Program-made: the position numbers and the translations under genes | Shown: one piece after another, positions 50 through 38,763 of the stretch | How positions within the stretch are numbered: the first letter of the stretch is position 1 | Layout of the letters: the number at the start of each line of letters is the position of its first letter | UHGV virus genome: UHGV-0123627 | Source of the DNA: a virus | Direction: 5' to 3' (one strand) | Length of the DNA stretch: 38,813 nucleotides | The notes under the pieces: generated by a model | Told to the model about the DNA's origin: nothing | What the model saw: only the letters and a program-made list of their open reading frames with translations | The model's database searches: none

Positions 50-1120
50 TTATTTGATTTCAATTTTGTCCCACTCCCTGCCTCTGTCATCACGATACTG
101 TGATGCCATGGTGTCCGACTTATGCCCGAGAAGATGTTGAGCAAACTTATCGCTTATCTGCTTCTCATAGAGTCTTGCAGACAAACTGCGCAACTCGTGA
201 AAGGTAGGCGGATCCCCTTCGAAGGAAAGACCTGATGCTTTTCGTGCGCGCATAAAATACCTTGATACTGTGCCGGATGAAAGCGGTTCGCGACGAGTAG
301 ATGCAATTATGGTTTCTCCGCCAAGAATCTCTTTGCATTTATCAAGTGTTTCCTTCATTGATATTCCGAGAGCATCAACATGCAATGCTGTTGGGATGGC
401 AATTTTTACGCCTGTTTTGCTTTGCTCGACATAAAGATATCCATCTACGATATCAGACCACTTCATTTCGCATAAATCACCAACTCTCTGCCCGGTAACA
501 ACAGCCAGTTCCATTGCAAGTCTTAGCCAACATGGTGATGATTCTGCTGCTTGATAAATTTTCAGGTATTCGTCAGCCGTAAGCCTTGATCTCCTTACCT
601 CTGATTTTGCTGCGCGAGTGGCAGCGACCGGGTTTGTTGTTATATGGCCTTCAGCTATTGCCTCTCGGAATGCATCGCTCAGTGTTGATCTGATTAACTT
701 GGCTGATGCCGCCTTGCCCTCGTCTATGTATCCATTAAGCATTGCCGCAATTTCTTTTGTGGTGATGTCTTCAAGTGGAGCATCAGGCAGACCCCTCCTT
801 ATTGCTTTAATTTTGCTCATGTAATTTATGAGTGTCTTCTGCTTGATTCCTCTGCTGGCGAGTATTTTTTCGTAGCGATCAAGCCATGAATGTAGCGTAA
901 CAGAATTATCACTGTTGATTCTTGCTGTCAGAGGCTTGTGTTTGTGTCCTGAAAATAACTCAATGTTTGCCTGTATTGCTTCAGTAATTGCTATCCTCCT
1001 GTCTCTGCCTAATCCGAACTCTTTACCCGTCCTTGGGTCCCTGTAGCAGTAATATCCATTGTTTCTTATATAAAGGTTAGGGGGTAAATCCCGGCGCTCA
1101 TGACTTCGCCTTCTTCCCAT
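50..1120 (-). CDS. int: Tyrosine integrase, lambda Int
   Basis: 356-aa ORF; translation MGRRRSHERRDLPPNLYIRNNGYYCYRDPRTGKEF... matches lambda Int essentially end to end from memory. Confidence 0.97.
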   Translation of the reverse strand: MGRRRSHERRDLPPNLYIRNNGYYCYRDPRTGKEFGLGRDRRIAITEAIQANIELFSGHKHKPLTARINSDNSVTLHSWLDRYEKILASRGIKQKTLINYMSKIKAIRRGLPDAPLEDITTKEIAAMLNGYIDEGKAASAKLIRSTLSDAFREAIAEGHITTNPVAATRAAKSEVRRSRLTADEYLKIYQAAESSPCWLRLAMELAVVTGQRVGDLCEMKWSDIVDGYLYVEQSKTGVKIAIPTALHVDALGISMKETLDKCKEILGGETIIASTRREPLSSGTVSRYFMRARKASGLSFEGDPPTFHELRSLSARLYEKQISDKFAQHLLGHKSDTMASQYRDDRGREWDKIEIK

Positions 1121-30697: not shown

Positions 30698-33091
30698 ATG
30701 GCTAATTACCGTGATTTGTTAGAGCAGGCTGGCGCACGTTACGGTGTGCCAGAAGGGTTGATGACTGCACTGGGTGCCAAGGAGTCTTCTTACAACCCTG
30801 CCGCAGTAAGCTCCGCCGGGGCTGTAGGATTGACTCAGGTCATGCCTGGGACATGGCGTGATATGGGTTATACCGATGAGCAAATGCAAAACCCCGAATA
30901 TCAGGCTGACGCTGGCGCGCGCTATCTGGCAAAGATGTACCAGCAGTTTGGTAACTGGCGTGACGCTCTTCAGGCTTATCACGACGGTCCCGGCAACGTT
31001 ATGAAGGCAAAGCGTGGTGAATATACGCCAGGACCTGAAGGCCGCGGTTACGTTGATGATCGCTTTGCTCAATGGGCTGGTGACCCGGTGACAGACTCAA
31101 CAGTCGAACAGCGCGCCACCTCTGCAAAGGTACATCCTCAGCAAGACCCTAACAACCCGTTTGCACAACTGGAAGTACAGTCATCCGAACAAGTATCGGC
31201 ATCAGGTGTGCAGTCAGACCCAAATAATCCATTTGCTCAGATTGAGCAGCAGGCAGCCAGTCAGCAGCCACCTCAACCCGTAAGTTCTGTCGCACCGAAA
31301 CCTGTTCAGCAGCAAGGCGGAATAATGTCTGACCTTGGTAATGGACTTGCTGAAACCGGGCGCGGCTTACTACAGGCAGGAATCAACGTAGCGAACATAC
31401 CTGCTGAACTCACTGATGCTGTAACAAGCGCGGCGGCTTGGGCTGGCGGTAAACTCGGCATTGGCGATGGTACATATCAACCAGCGCCACGAGTAACAAC
31501 GCAGGGATTAGAGCAGGACTTTGGCCTTCAGCAAGGCGCGCTGACTCCACAAACGACAGAGGGAAGGGTATTTGCTGAAGCATTGCCTTACCTCACTCCT
31601 GCTGGCATTGAGAGAGCGGCAACACAGGCACCAACACTCGCTGGTAGAATCGCTCAGGGTGCAACTCGCCTTCTCGCTGAAAACGCAGTCGGGTCACTTG
31701 CTGCAAATAGTGCGAAAGATGATGCGGAAGCACTCGCTACCGATTTAGGTGTTGGCGTTCTGGCTGGCGGCGCTATTAACGCTGCCGGACGTGGATTAGG
31801 TGCTGCTTATCGTGGTGTTCGTGGTTCGATAGCACCAGAAGCGCAGCAGGCTATCAGATTTGCAGAGCGTGAAGGAGTTCCTCTGCACACCACAGACCTG
31901 TTACAACCAACCTCCCGCATCGGAAAAATGGCGCAGACTACAGCAGAAAATATCCCTCTGGCTGGCACAAGCGGAATGAGAGCAACGCAACAGGAAGCGA
32001 GAAGCCAGTTGGTGCAGAGATTTGCCGATAAATTCGGTGAGTATGATCCAGCGGTTGTTATTGACAGCCTTAAAGCGAAAACATCAGGAATTCGTCGTGC
32101 CGCCGGTAATCGACTGGAGCAGGTTCAGAATGCTATGGCTGGAGTAAACATTCAGCCTGCGCGAGCAATTCAGCAGATTGATACAGAAATATCTAACCTG
32201 CAGAAGCTTGGTAAGGTTGCTGATAACGAGACAATTTCAAAACTTCAGTCATATCGTGATGAGCTTGTTCGCAATGCTGGCCCTGATGGCCCGGTAAATC
32301 TGGATTTGAAGCAATTAAGCGATCTGCGCAGCCAGTTCAGAATGGACGTGAAGGGTGAGCGACCAGTGTTACCAAACCGTTCCGATGCCGCCATACAGCG
32401 CGTTTACAAGGCGATGACCGACGATATCAATGGTGCCATTGGTCAGAATCTTGGCAATGATACTCTTCGTAAATATCAGCAGGCCAATTCCGTCTACGCT
32501 GACGAAGCGGCGAAACTAAAGAATACCAGGCTGAAGAATGTTCTCATGAAAGGCGACCTGACGCCGGAAGTTGTCAACAACATGCTATTCAGCAAGAACA
32601 AATCTGAAATTAAGACGCTGTATAACTCAGTTGGTCGTGTTGGCAGGGCGCAAATGCGCAATGGCATCATTGGAAAGGCGATGGAGAAATCTGGCGGATC
32701 CCCTGACCAGTTCCTTCGGCAGCTTAACATCCTGCAAAACCAGACTGGCATCACATTTAAGGGGCAGGATGCTGATTATCTGAAAGGATTGAAAAATTAC
32801 CTTCAGTCCACTCAGCAGGCAGCAAAAGCGGCAGTAACAACACCAACAGGGCAGCAAACCATCCCGTTCATTATCGGGTATGGGACGGCAATGAACCCGG
32901 CGACAACTGGCGCAGCGGTAAGCTACGGACTTCTTACTCGCGCCTATGAGAGCGAACCATTCAGAAATGCAATGCTCCGAATGGCAAACACCCCACGCGG
33001 ATCGACAGCGTTTGAGAAAGCCATGCAGCAAGCGCAAAAAGCGATTAATGCACTGACGCAGGGTGCGAAGTCTGATTCGTTATCAGAATAG
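30698..33091 (+). CDS. Ejection/internal protein (P22 gp16 position) with N-terminal lytic transglycosylase domain
   Basis: 797-aa; N-terminal about 130 aa carry an SLT-like motif (AKESSYNPAAVSSAGAVGLTQVMPGTW ... AYHDGPGN); the remainder is Ala/Gly/Gln-rich. Confidence 0.75.
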   Translation: MANYRDLLEQAGARYGVPEGLMTALGAKESSYNPAAVSSAGAVGLTQVMPGTWRDMGYTDEQMQNPEYQADAGARYLAKMYQQFGNWRDALQAYHDGPGNVMKAKRGEYTPGPEGRGYVDDRFAQWAGDPVTDSTVEQRATSAKVHPQQDPNNPFAQLEVQSSEQVSASGVQSDPNNPFAQIEQQAASQQPPQPVSSVAPKPVQQQGGIMSDLGNGLAETGRGLLQAGINVANIPAELTDAVTSAAAWAGGKLGIGDGTYQPAPRVTTQGLEQDFGLQQGALTPQTTEGRVFAEALPYLTPAGIERAATQAPTLAGRIAQGATRLLAENAVGSLAANSAKDDAEALATDLGVGVLAGGAINAAGRGLGAAYRGVRGSIAPEAQQAIRFAEREGVPLHTTDLLQPTSRIGKMAQTTAENIPLAGTSGMRATQQEARSQLVQRFADKFGEYDPAVVIDSLKAKTSGIRRAAGNRLEQVQNAMAGVNIQPARAIQQIDTEISNLQKLGKVADNETISKLQSYRDELVRNAGPDGPVNLDLKQLSDLRSQFRMDVKGERPVLPNRSDAAIQRVYKAMTDDINGAIGQNLGNDTLRKYQQANSVYADEAAKLKNTRLKNVLMKGDLTPEVVNNMLFSKNKSEIKTLYNSVGRVGRAQMRNGIIGKAMEKSGGSPDQFLRQLNILQNQTGITFKGQDADYLKGLKNYLQSTQQAAKAAVTTPTGQQTIPFIIGYGTAMNPATTGAAVSYGLLTRAYESEPFRNAMLRMANTPRGSTAFEKAMQQAQKAINALTQGAKSDSLSE

Positions 33092-33181
33092 CCTTTCAAA
33101 CACCAGGAACGTGCAAAAACCAAATATGTAGAACGCGAGGTTTATCGTATCCCTCTGCATAGGCGATACCTTTGCTGATTG

Positions 33182-33667
33182 TTATCTGATGCTACTGCTA
33201 CTGTTGCATGTTACCGTGTTTCCAAATCCTGAATTGCAGTTTGTATATGTGTCAACGCGTGTTGGGTAAGGTTGAGTTATAACAGGCTGGCGCGCTTTTT
33301 GCTCGATCGCTTGCATTGTGTTTACAGCCTGATAATTCAATAAAGCCTGCTGGAATGCTTGGCTTTGTGCTATTTGTTGGGCTTGTTCTTGGCTTTGTAA
33401 TTGAACATAAAGATTCTGAAGCTCAAGTCTTGCCTGTGCGTCACTTATCTTGCCTTCATCGACGCCTTGCCCGAGCATCTTTGCAGCAAGGACATACAGC
33501 TTAGGTGTTGGTGCTGATGCCATGCGTGAGTCGTTCTTCACACTGGCATCAAGGCAATTAGCCATATCGCTAAGCTTTTGATAGCGTTGTTCGCAACTTG
33601 CTTGATAGTCACTTACTTTTGCGCATCCAACCAGCAGAAGCGGGATAATTAACAGTGATTTTTTCAT
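33182..33667 (-). CDS. Predicted lipoprotein (161 aa), hypothetical
   Basis: MKKSLLIIPLLLVGCAK with lipobox LLVGC; Gln-rich C-terminal part; AAGGAG upstream. Confidence 0.7.
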   Translation of the reverse strand: MKKSLLIIPLLLVGCAKVSDYQASCEQRYQKLSDMANCLDASVKNDSRMASAPTPKLYVLAAKMLGQGVDEGKISDAQARLELQNLYVQLQSQEQAQQIAQSQAFQQALLNYQAVNTMQAIEQKARQPVITQPYPTRVDTYTNCNSGFGNTVTCNSSSSIR

Positions 33668-33737
33668 ATGGTTAACTCTCCTTAGTTTTTCACAGGATAT
33701 CATGAAGGCAATGCCATTTTAGCCGGAAACTAGATTT

Positions 33738-34004
33738 CTATGTTTCCTTTTTATTATTGCTATACATGGTCTTAAGCGTTTCAAAAACCATTTTCTTAAC
33801 CATATCAGATTGTTGCTCTGCCATACGCTCTGCATCGTCAATGTAAACGGATGCAGAGCTTTGTTTAGCCAATGATTCTTCAATCGCTGCAATTATCTCT
33901 GAGTTCAGCGATCTGTTATTCATCTTCGCACGCTGTTTAATTTTCGCGTGGAGTTCATGCGGAAGTCTCAAGTGAAACTGCGCCTCGTCGTATTTGCTGT
34001 ACAT
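33738..34004 (-). CDS. mnt: Mnt-like ribbon-helix-helix repressor
   Basis: ...SLNSEIIAAIEESLAKQSSASVYIDDAERMAEQQSDMVKKMVFETLKTMY... parallels P22 Mnt (RSMNSELLQIVQDAL...NDAERLADEQSELVKKMVFDTLKDLYKK) as remembered. Confidence 0.8.
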   Translation of the reverse strand: MYSKYDEAQFHLRLPHELHAKIKQRAKMNNRSLNSEIIAAIEESLAKQSSASVYIDDAERMAEQQSDMVKKMVFETLKTMYSNNKKET

Positions 34005-34125
34005 CCTTGATGCCTCACCAGTTGGGTGGAATGGCATCGTAACCTACTGGATAAATACTCAATAGTACCATTTCGGTATGCAATCAAATCATGGTTGCAT
34101 CATATCATTCGTCTGGAGCAATGAA

Positions 34126-35931
34126 ATGTCAGATATCACCGCAAATGTTGTGGTAAGCATGCCTTCTCAACTCTTCACTATGGCTCGTTCTTTTAAAGCT
34201 GTAGCCAATGGCAAAATTTATATCGGTAAAATTGACACTGACCCGGTAAATCCTGAAAACCAGATTCAGGTTTATATAGAGAACGAAGACGGTTCTCACG
34301 TTCCTGTTTCGCAACCAATCATCATTAATGCTGCTGGTTACCCCGTATATAACGGACAGATTACCAAGTTCGTAACTGTACAGAATCACTCCATGGCTGT
34401 ATATGATGCGTATGGCGCACAACAATTCTATTATCCTGATCTACTGAAATATTCTCCAGATCAGTTAAGGGCTGAGCTTTCTGGCCCTGATGGCGCATCT
34501 CTGGTTGGTTATGGAGATGAAACTGTCAAAGATGCTCTTGACAATAATGCCCATAAAATAGATACGTTGAGAAGTGACTTGGCTGCTGATGATGGCTTTC
34601 GCCACATAGGCAACTTTCTCAATTTAGATGCGCTGAGGGATTCAATACCATTAGTTGCTGGAGAAATTGTCTATGTAGCTTCAGCAGCAAGTGCTACAGC
34701 AACTGAAAAACATTATGGCGGTGGTTACTTCCAGTCTTTCGACAATAGCACATCACAGATTGCCGATGATGGAGGGATTGTTATTGTTCCAAGTTCAGGT
34801 AAATTTGCTTGGAGGAGGGTTGTTGATGGTGAGATATGGGTAGAGTATTTTGGAGCAAAACCGATAAATGATTTTGACAACGCCTCTGCAATATCAAAGG
34901 CTTTATCATATGGATATGATAATAATACCCCTATTCATTTTATGTCAGGTGAATATCTAACCTCCGAAAGTCCTGTTGTAAAGTCATGGTCTGGAATCAT
35001 AGGTCAAGGTCAAAATAAGACGATTATCTCTAAAACAACAAATAACGCGAACACCATAATTTCTGGAGTCTCAGTGGATGCACTGCTGATTATTCTTCCA
35101 AAAAAATTCGTTGTAGATGGTGTTGAGAGTGATAACTATGCTACAGGCGTAGAGATACAAGGTGTTACTTTAAGACGTCATGAAATTATAGATAGAAATA
35201 ATCAACCAACATATGGAATATACTCTCCTTACATGGCTTCAAGTTTGTTAAGAGACTTGCGTGTAGAATGTGGGTATTATGGTTTTTGGGGTGAAGATTG
35301 CTTCTCAAATATATTTGAACGGTGCGGTTTTTTAGGTTTGGCTATTGGGCAGTTTACTGGTTTTTATTTAGGTAAAGTGAGGGATGGTATATATAACCTT
35401 TCTGGAACAAGTAATCTTCTAGACCAGGTGGGAGTTGTTAATTATCAAATTGGTTTTGAAATTGACGCTCAACAGTACACAACACTAAATTGTTGTACTG
35501 CTGATTCTATATTTCCTATGTCTGGTACTACTGAGACAATATCAAGAGCTTATCTTTTCAATAACCCTCATGGAATAACAATGAATAGTTGTGGAAGTGA
35601 GAATGTAAAGGGGGAAAGAATAGCAGTAGTCCAAGCTTCGCCATCTATTTATGACGGTACAATGGTGATAAATGGATGTCAATTTCAGGTTGTCCCAGCA
35701 AATCCACCAATTTCTTTGCCAATATTTAGGTTTGAGAACAATGGCACAAATTCATTTAATTTGTACATAACAGTAAATTCATCTAACTTTCGTCGAGATT
35801 CTTCTACAACACCAAACCTAATTCAAGGATATGTTTATGGTGGTACTGGCGCTGTCACAGTCGTAAGATTCATAGCATCTGTTCTTGAAGATCCGATAAC
35901 GGCAGGAAATGTAGATGTTAAACTAATTTAG
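34126..35931 (+). CDS. Tailspike protein (P22 gp9-like head-binding domain, divergent receptor-binding domain)
   Basis: [79 protein letters not shown]... matches the P22 tailspike N-terminal domain; the rest is dissimilar; GGAG 7 nt upstream. Confidence 0.9.
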
Positions 35932-35938
35932 CTATAAG

Positions 35939-36012
35939 AAAGCCGTTAATTTTTATATTCAACGGCTTTAATTGTTTCTGCAAAAGACCATATCTTTAGG
36001 AGATGGTCTTTT
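35939..36012. terminator. Two hairpins between convergent tailspike and gtr genes (bidirectional terminators)
   Basis: AAAGCCGTT-loop-AACGGCTTT and AAAAGACCAT-loop-ATGGTCTTTT, both perfect stems flanked by A/T runs. Confidence 0.55.
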
Positions 36013-36027
36013 GCTTAATTGTGGTGT

Positions 36028-37488
36028 TTATTTACATAAAGAATCATCAAAACTCACCATTACATTCTCATTATCACGATAAATTTTAATATCATTAGAT
36101 GAATAAATTAGTGTTGATTTACAATAGTCCTTCATGAACATAGATACTTCTTTACTGGAAAAATCAGGATAATTTTGATTTACTCCTCTAATCTTGAGGT
36201 ATACATGAGAGCCATACCAGTTATAGAAGTAGTCGAGTACTATTGTTTTGAATAGTGGATAATTTAATTCTGAATTAAGTAGTATAGGGGATTTTGGTGA
36301 ACTACCATTAAACATAACATTAACACTATTTTCGGGTATGTTTTTTAACGCTAGCCCAATAATTTCAGCAATGTATTTATTTTTATCATCTTGTGCTCGC
36401 AAAGCATTTCCATATGAATAAAAAAGAGTAATTATATAAAAAAGGAATATTAAAAATATACCGTTGACAATTCTTGTGTTATTTATTCCCAAATATAAAA
36501 GGGTGAAGATGAATAAAAAAAGACCATTAAACCCAATATAAACCCTTGCAAAAGTTGTTAGAGTGTTTTCAAGGAGAAGTAATGAAATCATTGATGATAT
36601 AAAAGTCAAAGGTAATGATAACACTGCCATCAAAGATAAAAAAACAGCAGCATTACACTTGTGTTTTTTAATGTAAACAAAAACCAATTTAATGGCAAAT
36701 GCAAATGATACAATAAAACTACCAATTAATAATTCACTCCCATGCTCAGGGATTATATTTCTAGTGTAGAAATCATAATACGCAATAAAGTTCTTATGAA
36801 TTACATCTATAATATTTGTGGCAACTCCTGGGTGATTTTGACTATTGTCATTAACATGAGTTAACGGCAGTACAACCCTCATATAGATAACAGCGCCAAC
36901 CAATACTTCGATAATTCGAAATGCAATTGACTTTATTATGTGTGTTGGCTCTTTATTATTCTTTATGTTAACAAACATTTCTATAGAGATTAATATAAAA
37001 ACTATATTAATAGATGCTTGGTAAAATGAAAATAAGATAACTATAAAGCTAGAATGTAAAATAAATGAAATTACCGTGTTTTTATAGTTTAGACAAATAA
37101 ATGCAAATGCAAAAAATATCGAAGCTGAGATGGTTAAGCTATCAAACCTGTATGATAGAGGTTCGATTATAAATGGACTTAATAAAAATGACAACGGTAA
37201 AAAAAGATAATGATTATCTGAATTAAATAATTTAATGTGAAATAGATAAAATGAAATAGACAATAGCAAACATGCTATTATTAGAGGCAATGGAGCCAAG
37301 TCAGTTAGATGATTGTTAAAATTAAGAATAATCATTAATCTATCTGATAATGGTCTACCATCAATTCCCCAATAAGTTACGCCGCTCATTGCTCTGCTCA
37401 TATCATCGCTGTAGTAAACATTTGCAATTATAATTGGGAGCGCAAGTAAGAATGTGATAAATAAGTAAATCTTAATGTTATTTTTCAT
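36028..37488 (-). CDS. Serotype-specific O-antigen glucosyltransferase (GtrC-type polytopic membrane protein)
   Basis: 486-aa very hydrophobic multi-TM protein in AT-rich DNA, directly downstream of gtrB in the same operon. Confidence 0.75.
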
Positions 37489-38404
37489 TTTTAGAACTCT
37501 TTAAAAGATATTTCGGCCTTTGCTTTGTTTCAATATAAATTCGTCCAATGTACTCACCAAGAACACCAATACCAATGAGTTGGATACCACCAAGGAAAAG
37601 TATAGATACTAGCAGGGATGGATAACCTCTAACCGGGTTTCCAAACGCCAGAGTGTCCAGAATCATCCATGCGCCATATGTAAATGCTAAGCCAGCGACG
37701 AGAAGGCCGATGTAAGTCCACATACGTAGCGGAAAAGTCGAGAAGCTCGTAATTCCCTCAAGAGCAAGATTCCACAACTTCCATCCGTTGAACTTGGTAC
37801 TGCCAGCAACACGTTCTGCGCGGGCATAATCAACGATATCAGTGCGACCACCAACCCAACTCAAAACACCCTTCATGAAAAGGTTGCGTTCTGGCATGAG
37901 CTTAATGTTCTCTACGACTTCACGAGACATCAGACGGAAATCACCAACATTTTCCTCGATCTGCGGATTGCTGATTTTATTGTGAAGCTTATAGAACCAC
38001 TCGGCGGTTTTCCTCTTCAGTCTGCCATCCGTTGAGCGGTCAGATCGTTTAGCAAGCACCATATCAGCACCTGCCTGCCACTTTTCAATAAGATGAGGAA
38101 TAACCTCAATCGGGTCTTGCAGGTCAACATCAATTGGAATCACGGCATCGCCAGTTGCATGGTCTAACCCTGCAAACAATGCTGGTTCTTTACCAAAGTT
38201 GCGTGTAAATGACAGCGGAACAACTAGCGGATCATAAACAGCCAGAGCGTTAATGATTGACTCCGTAGAGTCTTTGCTACCATCATTTATAAAAACAATT
38301 TCTACTTCATATGGCTTCAACTCTTCGAATTCACGTACCGTTTTATAAAAAATTGGTATCGCTTCTTCTTCATTGAAGACAGGAACTACAAGAGATATCT
38401 TCAT
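37478..38404 (-). CDS. gtrB: Bactoprenol glucosyltransferase GtrB (GT2 family)
   Basis: 308-aa [47 protein letters not shown]... with two C-terminal TM segments. Confidence 0.95.
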
Positions 38405-38763
38405 TTCGCATCCCTAAAGACAATGAACTTTGAATAGACGAAACCGCACACCAGGCTGATGGCGGAGAAAGTGATAAGGGTGACCATCGGGGGAAGGGCG
38501 CATCTATCAGCAGCCCACCCGACGACAACACTCAATGTTCCCATGAATCCCACGTATAACAAGTAACGCATCGTTGTAGTCGATGCCTTGAATGTGAATT
38601 TTGCATTCGCGAAGAAGCTAAAACTCACAGCCACAACGAAACCTGCGAAGTTTGCAAGAGCTTGGTTTGTATGCGCGGCATAGATACAAACACCAAAAAC
38701 CACCCAGTGTATAAGGGTGTTCAGCACACCAATCGAGGTGTACTTTGCAAATAGCTTTAACAT
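38401..38763 (-). CDS. gtrA: GtrA flippase-like small membrane protein
   Basis: 120-aa four-TM protein [31 protein letters not shown]... ending in ...FIVFRDAK; first gene of the gtr operon. Confidence 0.9.

Follow-up and report, generated by a model that had tools for sequence, protein, structure and literature searches.

A P22-like prophage end combining a tailspike of probable O-antigen specificity with a GtrABC cassette that carries an uncharacterised type-specific allele

We analyzed UHGV virus genome UHGV-0123627, a stretch of 38,813 nucleotides (nt) referred to below as the window, one end of which carries a tailspike gene convergent to a three-gene gtr cassette (Table 1). By its sequence, this region is assigned to the end of a P22-like (Lederbergvirus-type) Escherichia coli prophage, integrated at att-lambda, that serves host recognition and lysogenic conversion. 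The tailspike has what defines a P22-like tailspike: a head-binding domain, a beta-helix receptor-binding domain (RBD), and a position after a gp16-type gene and mnt/arc. Likewise, the cassette has what defines GtrABC, namely gtrA, gtrB and a low-GC polytopic third gene of the PF14264 family, in the expected order beside the att site and integrase. The convergent arrangement had been recognized in a first-pass annotation of the sequence, although the region that it delimited (34126-37488) does not include gtrB and gtrA, and the cassette runs on to position 38763.

Table 1 Annotated features of the tailspike-gtr end and of other prophage genes, in window coordinates (aa, amino acids; ORF, open reading frame)
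Feature	Position	Strand	Description
Tailspike	34126-35931	+	601 aa; within the + strand ORF 34078-35931 (ORF scan)
Tailspike head-binding (particle-anchor) domain, aa 1-115	34126-34470	+	PF09008; matches to gp9 and Sf6 gp14
Tailspike neck and receptor-binding/depolymerase beta-helix, aa 116-601	34471-35931	+	Predicted O-antigen (O103-type) glycosidase
Two stem-loops between tailspike and gtrC	35939-35969, 35980-36014	both	RNA folding
gtrC, type-specific polytopic O-antigen glucosyltransferase, GT-C fold	36028-37488	-	486 aa; PF14264 GtrII (Glucos_trans_II), E=2.6e-23
gtrB, bactoprenol (undecaprenyl-phosphate) glucosyltransferase, GT2	37478-38404	-	308 aa; PF00535, E=2.3e-31
gtrA, small membrane protein, putative Und-P-glucose flippase	38401-38763	-	120 aa; PF04138 (GtrA/DPMS), E=8.8e-14
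gp16-type ejection protein	30698-33091		797 aa; N-terminal SLT lytic-transglycosylase domain, aa ~1-120
Lipoprotein-like ORF with signal MKKSLLIIPLLLVGC	33182-33667	-	161 aa; phrog_6067 of unknown function; between gp16 and mnt
Mnt/Arc-type immI repressor	33738-34037	-	PF03869 Arc, E=1e-14; PF11423 Repressor_Mnt, E=4e-12
Lambda-type integrase	50-1120	-	Translation MGRRRSHERRDLPPNLYIRNNGYYCYRDPRTGKEF...; other prophage end

The start of the tailspike was placed at 34126 (MSDITANVV...), because the protein, read from this methionine, corresponds position by position to P22 gp9 from M1. The N-terminus is a P22-type anchor. The Pfam Head_binding family PF09008 covers aa 1-113 (E=7.3e-66), and BLASTP against gp9 returned 84 identities over aa 1-117 (72%). 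In a PDB sequence search, the same region also matched Sf6 gp14 aa 1-119 (E=3e-61), and the matches to the P22 and Sf6 tailspikes end at aa ~118. The remaining ~480 aa gave no similarity to gp9 by BLASTP, the best further match having E=1.4. The first-pass annotation had described the N-terminal ~110 aa as the gp9 head-binding domain and the rest as unlike P22, and our alignments, which stop at aa 117 of the tailspike, support both statements. A diverged gp9 endorhamnosidase was ruled out as the identity of the RBD, since nothing beyond the anchor aligns to gp9. Among relatives in E. coli and Cronobacter sakazakii, the anchor domain is 94.8-96.5% identical, including in those where the remainder of the protein has diverged. 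Strain APEC20/16 (NZ_CP127297.1 3596337-3596969) shares window positions 34126-34791, corresponding to the anchor and the neck to aa ~222, at 92-97% nt identity and then diverges, and an alignment of the tailspike family contains a near-invariant block at aa ~118-231. Both observations suggest that, besides the classical head-binding/RBD junction, there is a further recombination joint located downstream of it.

The AlphaFold2 (AF2) model of the tailspike is an all-beta parallel beta-helix with a predicted local distance difference test score (pLDDT) of 85 overall and mostly above 88 from aa ~170. A Foldseek search with the RBD returned the Acinetobacter phage depolymerases 24qi and 6eu4 (TM-score 0.56-0.59, probability 1.00), so that the modeled RBD is a parallel beta-helix distinct from that of P22 and closest to these depolymerases. 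The acidic residues E381, D460, E470 and E492 are conserved in the RBD, and the protein would be a homotrimer with predicted O-antigen endoglycosidase activity. The receptor part of the gene has a GC content of 0.379. Relatives of the RBD are spread over many genera; an RBD module related at 51% (L040 type) was absent from the complete E. coli genomes. The best tblastn match among phage records was OR844942.1 45017-46321 (44% over 92%), in a record of 111 kb that bears the name Enterococcus phage Efm 3-10. A Gram-positive host is odd for such a sequence, and the record may be mislabelled or contaminated.

Across from the tailspike, the three gtr ORFs are intact. The overlaps of gtrB with its neighbours, 11 bp with gtrC and 4 bp with gtrA, are what an operon would show. 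The stop codons of the tailspike and gtrC are separated by 96 bp, within which the RNA folds at -33.6 kcal/mol on the + strand and -31.0 kcal/mol on the - strand (z = -5.1 and -7.1 versus shuffles). The two stem-loops are probably bidirectional terminators, judging from the folding; a simple terminator scan missed both, as they do not satisfy its G+C rule. The GC content of gtrC is 0.283 and that of gtrB and gtrA 0.43-0.47, set against 0.466 across the window as a whole and 0.481 in bases 1-33000. In 500-bp bins, the minimum of the profile falls on the three that cover gtrC (0.276-0.300); outside the tailspike/gtrC region, no bin goes below 0.392. The conspicuous AT-richness noted at first pass is thus evident in the profile, with gtrC far below the range of the window.

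GtrC matches the GtrC-like PHROG family (E=1.8e-76). Its polytopic nature, also proposed earlier, is borne out by a hydropathy scan, which found at least nine hydrophobic segments, and by the AF2 model, a helical membrane bundle with a C-terminal alpha/beta domain. Structure comparison assigned this model confidently to the glycosyltransferase C (GT-C) fold, and an acetyltransferase-type GtrC was ruled out by the PF14264 match and this fold. Across 28 homologues, down to 18% identity, residues D28, D29, G44, R45, P46, D63 and Y113-R114 are invariant, and D28-D29 are placed directly after the first transmembrane helix. GT-C enzymes have their catalytic acidic motif at this place, within periplasmic loop 1. 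By this analogy, D28-D29 would be the site of the catalytic acidic motif.

The allele is distant from the characterised ones. In a search of 50,697 phage records, GtrC was closest to the P22-type GtrC (top row 24.5%, phage ST160), and pairwise alignment with P22 GtrC gave 25% identity over 460 aa. No type-specific Gtr of a Shigella phage matched at E<=1e-5 in the same records, and the GtrC of phage HF4s showed no detectable similarity. A low-stringency DNA search of 5,426 complete E. coli genomes likewise failed to find gtrC, and GtrC had no confirmed relative in the species-representative genomes of GTDB. Close homologues in a large protein collection bear generic names only. Identity to a characterised allele, which the first-pass annotation had named as a ground for refutation, was thus not found, the nearest among the phage records being the P22-type GtrC at ~25%. 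Pfam, PHROG, the GT-C fold and the P22 gene order all support its description of the cassette as a serotype-converting module, although the wording overstated how unusual the region is. The architecture itself is not new but the standard P22/Lederbergvirus layout, since P22 and HF4s already have the same gene order. The RBD and GtrC alleles are uncharacterised, and the new part consists of these alleles, their probable O103/O4 assignment (see below) and their near-identical occurrence in two genera.

In E. coli draft genomes, the tailspike-GtrC pair was found at att-lambda (loci L034, L035 and L039), at argW (L036-L038) and between dacD and sbcB (L001-L004), and both proteins are 99-100% identical across the three sites. 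Several of these carriers are prophage remnants that have lost the virion genes and kept gtrABC. Many carriers being remnants with truncated or uncalled tailspikes, the cassette could in principle be silent or decayed in this prophage, leaving the cell surface unchanged. The region upstream of gtrA in lysogens points the same way: it shares a short stretch with P22 (L034 8590-8725 versus P22 L032 1960-2140) and contains one GATC site versus four in two pairs in P22, so that the four-GATC regulatory region is unrecognisable and a P22-type Dam/OxyR phase-variation switch is not evident. However, none of the three ORFs is interrupted and their stop and start codons overlap, the exact GtrC sequence occurs in 184 index blocks, and remnants without virion genes still keep the whole operon, which indicates host-side selection for the cassette. 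We regard a silent cassette as highly improbable.

The module also occurs outside E. coli. A C. sakazakii genome (L030, GCA_033897105.1) carries mnt-tailspike-gtrC at 99.95% nt identity over 3.8 kb (window 33167-36971), a match implying very recent transfer between genera. The proA/proB flank of this copy has 64% GC, indicating that the host is genuinely Cronobacter, and mislabelled E. coli was ruled out for the C. sakazakii copies by host flanks of 58-64% GC. A diverged C. sakazakii copy at folD retains 76.5% identity in the RBD, 85.8% in GtrC and 92% in GtrB, and a contig labelled Proteus mirabilis has 73.2% in the RBD and 66.7% in GtrC. The RBD and GtrC thus diverge in step (99.6/99.2, 76.5/85.8 and 73.2/66.7%) while integrases and insertion sites change, a pattern that speaks for selection acting on the two together. 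Neither gene is bound to the other: in another E. coli prophage, the same RBD adjoins an acyltransferase, and RBDs that are 48-51% identical sit beside GtrC alleles that are only 27-28% identical. These exceptions would fit another explanation, in which the adjacency reflects linkage in two variable att-proximal slots that every P22-like genome has, and GtrC may modify a sugar irrelevant to the tailspike. P22 shares the layout, and gtrB-gtrA belong to near-universal cassettes, with DNA 85-88% identical to that of HF4s and of the Shigella phages SfI, SfII, SfIV and SfV. We nevertheless find mere linkage improbable, given the parallel divergence of the RBD and GtrC among freely varying integrases and sites. 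Furthermore, the replacement of gtr by a different O-antigen modifier beside the same RBD is what receptor masking predicts.

Which polysaccharide the tailspike recognizes was approached through its relatives, and four indirect lines lead us to lean towards the O-antigen of E. coli O103 and the closely related C. sakazakii O4. First, the only complete E. coli genome with the RBD (97% aa identity, truncated by an insertion sequence (IS)) has an O103 gene cluster. Second, among E. coli phages the RBD is most similar to those of TL-2011b (35%), PAS7 (31%) and Ro103C3lw (28%), which constitute the O103 subtype of receptor-binding proteins (RBPs), and the PAS7 tailspike has been identified as the determinant for O103 (PMC11522302, PMC10408124). 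The subtype is defined by at least 30% aa identity over the RBD (PMC10408124), and our values sit at this threshold, with TL-2011b and PAS7 above it and Ro103C3lw below. Third, the module recurs in C. sakazakii, whose O4 antigen is reported, in the statement in PMC4599207 that cites Shashkov et al. 2015, to be close to that of E. coli O103. Fourth, a single record of C. sakazakii strain 696 combines an O4-type wzy, whose product shares 52% identity with O103 Wzy, with a P22-like tailspike that has a 48%-identical RBD and its own gtrABC.

Several observations weigh against this assignment and would fit a tailspike that recognizes another polysaccharide, whether a different O-antigen, a capsule or a colanic-acid-type polymer, with the O103 links being coincidental. 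The O103 link consists of one IS-disrupted remnant, which could predate an O-antigen switch, and distant homology. PAS7, the experimentally supported O103 tailspike, is only 31% identical, and three of the seven pocket acids proposed for it are kept (E268 as E381, E347 as D460 and E377 as E492) while D166, E177, E348 and D407 are replaced. The O103 genomes within the 5,426 complete E. coli genomes all lack gtrC. The nearest solved structures to the RBD are capsule depolymerases, those of the Acinetobacter phages, a PHROG match is named for colanic-acid degradation, and the RBD has relatives in many genera. However, the colanic-acid match is confined to aa 1-220, the anchor and neck, and the four lines above converge independently on O103/O4. 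In addition, the RBD adjoins an O-antigen-modifying gene (gtrABC or the acyltransferase) in every locus seen, which is the pattern of O-antigen-specific P22-like phages. On balance, we judge a different polysaccharide rather unlikely and retain the O103/O4 antigen as the favored receptor. The sbcB-yeeE flank of L003 was uninformative on the serogroup, its best complete-genome match of 99.4% recurring across many lineages including O111, and literature searches on O103 and gtr found nothing specific.

From the P22-identical architecture, the domain and fold assignments and the linkage of the module, it is likely that a P22-type tailspike and a functional Gtr conversion cassette act here on the same O-antigen. 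In the proposed mechanism, the conserved N-terminal domain would plug the trimeric spike onto a P22-type tail hub, and the exchanged beta-helix would bind and probably cleave the host O-antigen, drawing the virion to the outer membrane. In the lysogen, GtrB would transfer glucose from UDP-glucose (UDP-Glc) to undecaprenyl phosphate (Und-P) at the cytoplasmic face, GtrA would flip the resulting Und-P-Glc to the periplasm, and GtrC would attach it to a single specific sugar within the O-unit. The change would alter the serotype and lower the adsorption of the same and related phages. This route from UDP-Glc through Und-P-Glc, flipping and periplasmic transfer to the O-unit is established for Gtr systems (PMC7685785), and its operation here, with GtrB and GtrA intact, would by analogy be the best-supported mechanism. 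Cleavage, glucose as the sugar, the acceptor residue and superinfection exclusion are inferred. If the receptor is as favored above, GtrC would create a glucosylated O103 or O4 variant. More tentatively, the tailspike-GtrC pair may define an undescribed glucosylated subtype of O103 in E. coli and O4 in C. sakazakii, exchanged between the genera on near-identical P22-like phage DNA.

The rest of the window fits a P22-like prophage. Positions 9000-33000 are ~97% identical to P22-like prophages in many E. coli genomes, where the matching regions are annotated as portal, gp10, terminase, coat and DNA-transfer proteins. As in P22, the Mnt/Arc repressor gene is the immediate upstream neighbour of the tailspike and points away from it, and it keeps this position in related loci. 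P22 gp16-length homologues (660-684 aa) in related loci have no SLT domain. The 161-aa ORF between gp16 and mnt is conserved in E. coli and Cronobacter copies, and a moron or exclusion lipoprotein is a possible identity. The window starts with a sequence recognisable as a lambda attP arm. In E. coli drafts, modules identical to that of the window have the bio operon (att-lambda) as their neighbour. Upstream of the gtrA start, the window extends for another 50 bp, and lysogens have ~450 bp more phage DNA before the lambda att core; in the circular phage form, the integrase would adjoin gtrA across attP. As a lambda-type integrase and att site accompany P22-type virion genes, the element reads as a mosaic of a P22-type virion with lambda-type integration. 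The tailspike-gtr module is also preceded, in other strains, by integrases of the argW type and of the sbcB site.

O103 belongs to the principal non-O157 serogroups among E. coli that produce Shiga toxin (STEC), and among the O4 strains of C. sakazakii are lineages of neonatal infection. If the assignment is correct, there would be hidden antigenic heterogeneity within a major STEC serogroup, and O103/O4 variants could evade phages specific for O103, tailocins, diagnostics based on tailspikes and possibly typing sera. A further consequence would be that the effective host range of a temperate phage, or at least of its receptor module, is set by a shared O-antigen and not by genus, and that a P22-type anchor already carries a ready-made O103-binding protein. 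With its near-identical occurrence in two genera, the module offers a clean case from nature of gene flow in temperate phages that crosses genera and is defined by the receptor. Our overall understanding of P22-like phages stays as it was; the value lies in the specific allele-to-antigen assignment, which is useful for the prediction of phage receptors and serotypes.

Among known systems, the Salmonella phage P22, whose gtrABC confers O:1 conversion, has the same gene order and orientation, with gene 9 convergent to gtrC-gtrB-gtrA beside att/int. Besides the head-binding domain (72%), its GtrB (87.7%) and GtrA (78%) closely resemble those of the window in aa sequence. P22 GtrC belongs to the same Pfam and PHROG family and is nearly equal in length (485 versus 486 aa), but shares only the 25% identity given above. 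P22 differs further in an RBD unrelated in sequence, in an Int that acts at thrW as against the lambda-type integrase at att-lambda, and in a gtr regulatory region with four GATC sites, not seen in the lysogens related to this prophage. Phage HF4s (Lederbergvirus, host E. coli 4s) has the closest gtrB-gtrA in the phage collection (87.8% nt) and the same tailspike-gtrC-gtrB-gtrA-int layout; it differs in a 410-aa GtrC without detectable similarity and in its tailspike, a different fusion protein of 791 aa. The Shigella flexneri serotype-converting phages SfI, SfII, SfIV, SfV and SfX, which are not P22-like in virion type, follow the same three-gene logic of gtrA-gtrB-gtr[type], and the gtrB-gtrA DNA of the first four is 85-86% identical to that of the window. 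A conserved A/B pair with a low-GC type-specific third gene is general among Gtr systems (PMC7685785). For the RBD, the closest systems are PAS7, TL-2011b and Ro103C3lw (Pas et al. 2023, 2024), whose homologous beta-helix aligns over ~87% of the length with E=1e-71 to 6e-35 and 28-35% identity. The N-terminal anchors differ, being P22-type here and of Uetakevirus, Kayfunavirus and Slopekvirinae types in the O103 subtype (PMC11522302). In TL-2011b, the RBP gene is likewise followed by an O-antigen modifier, in that case an O-acetyltransferase.

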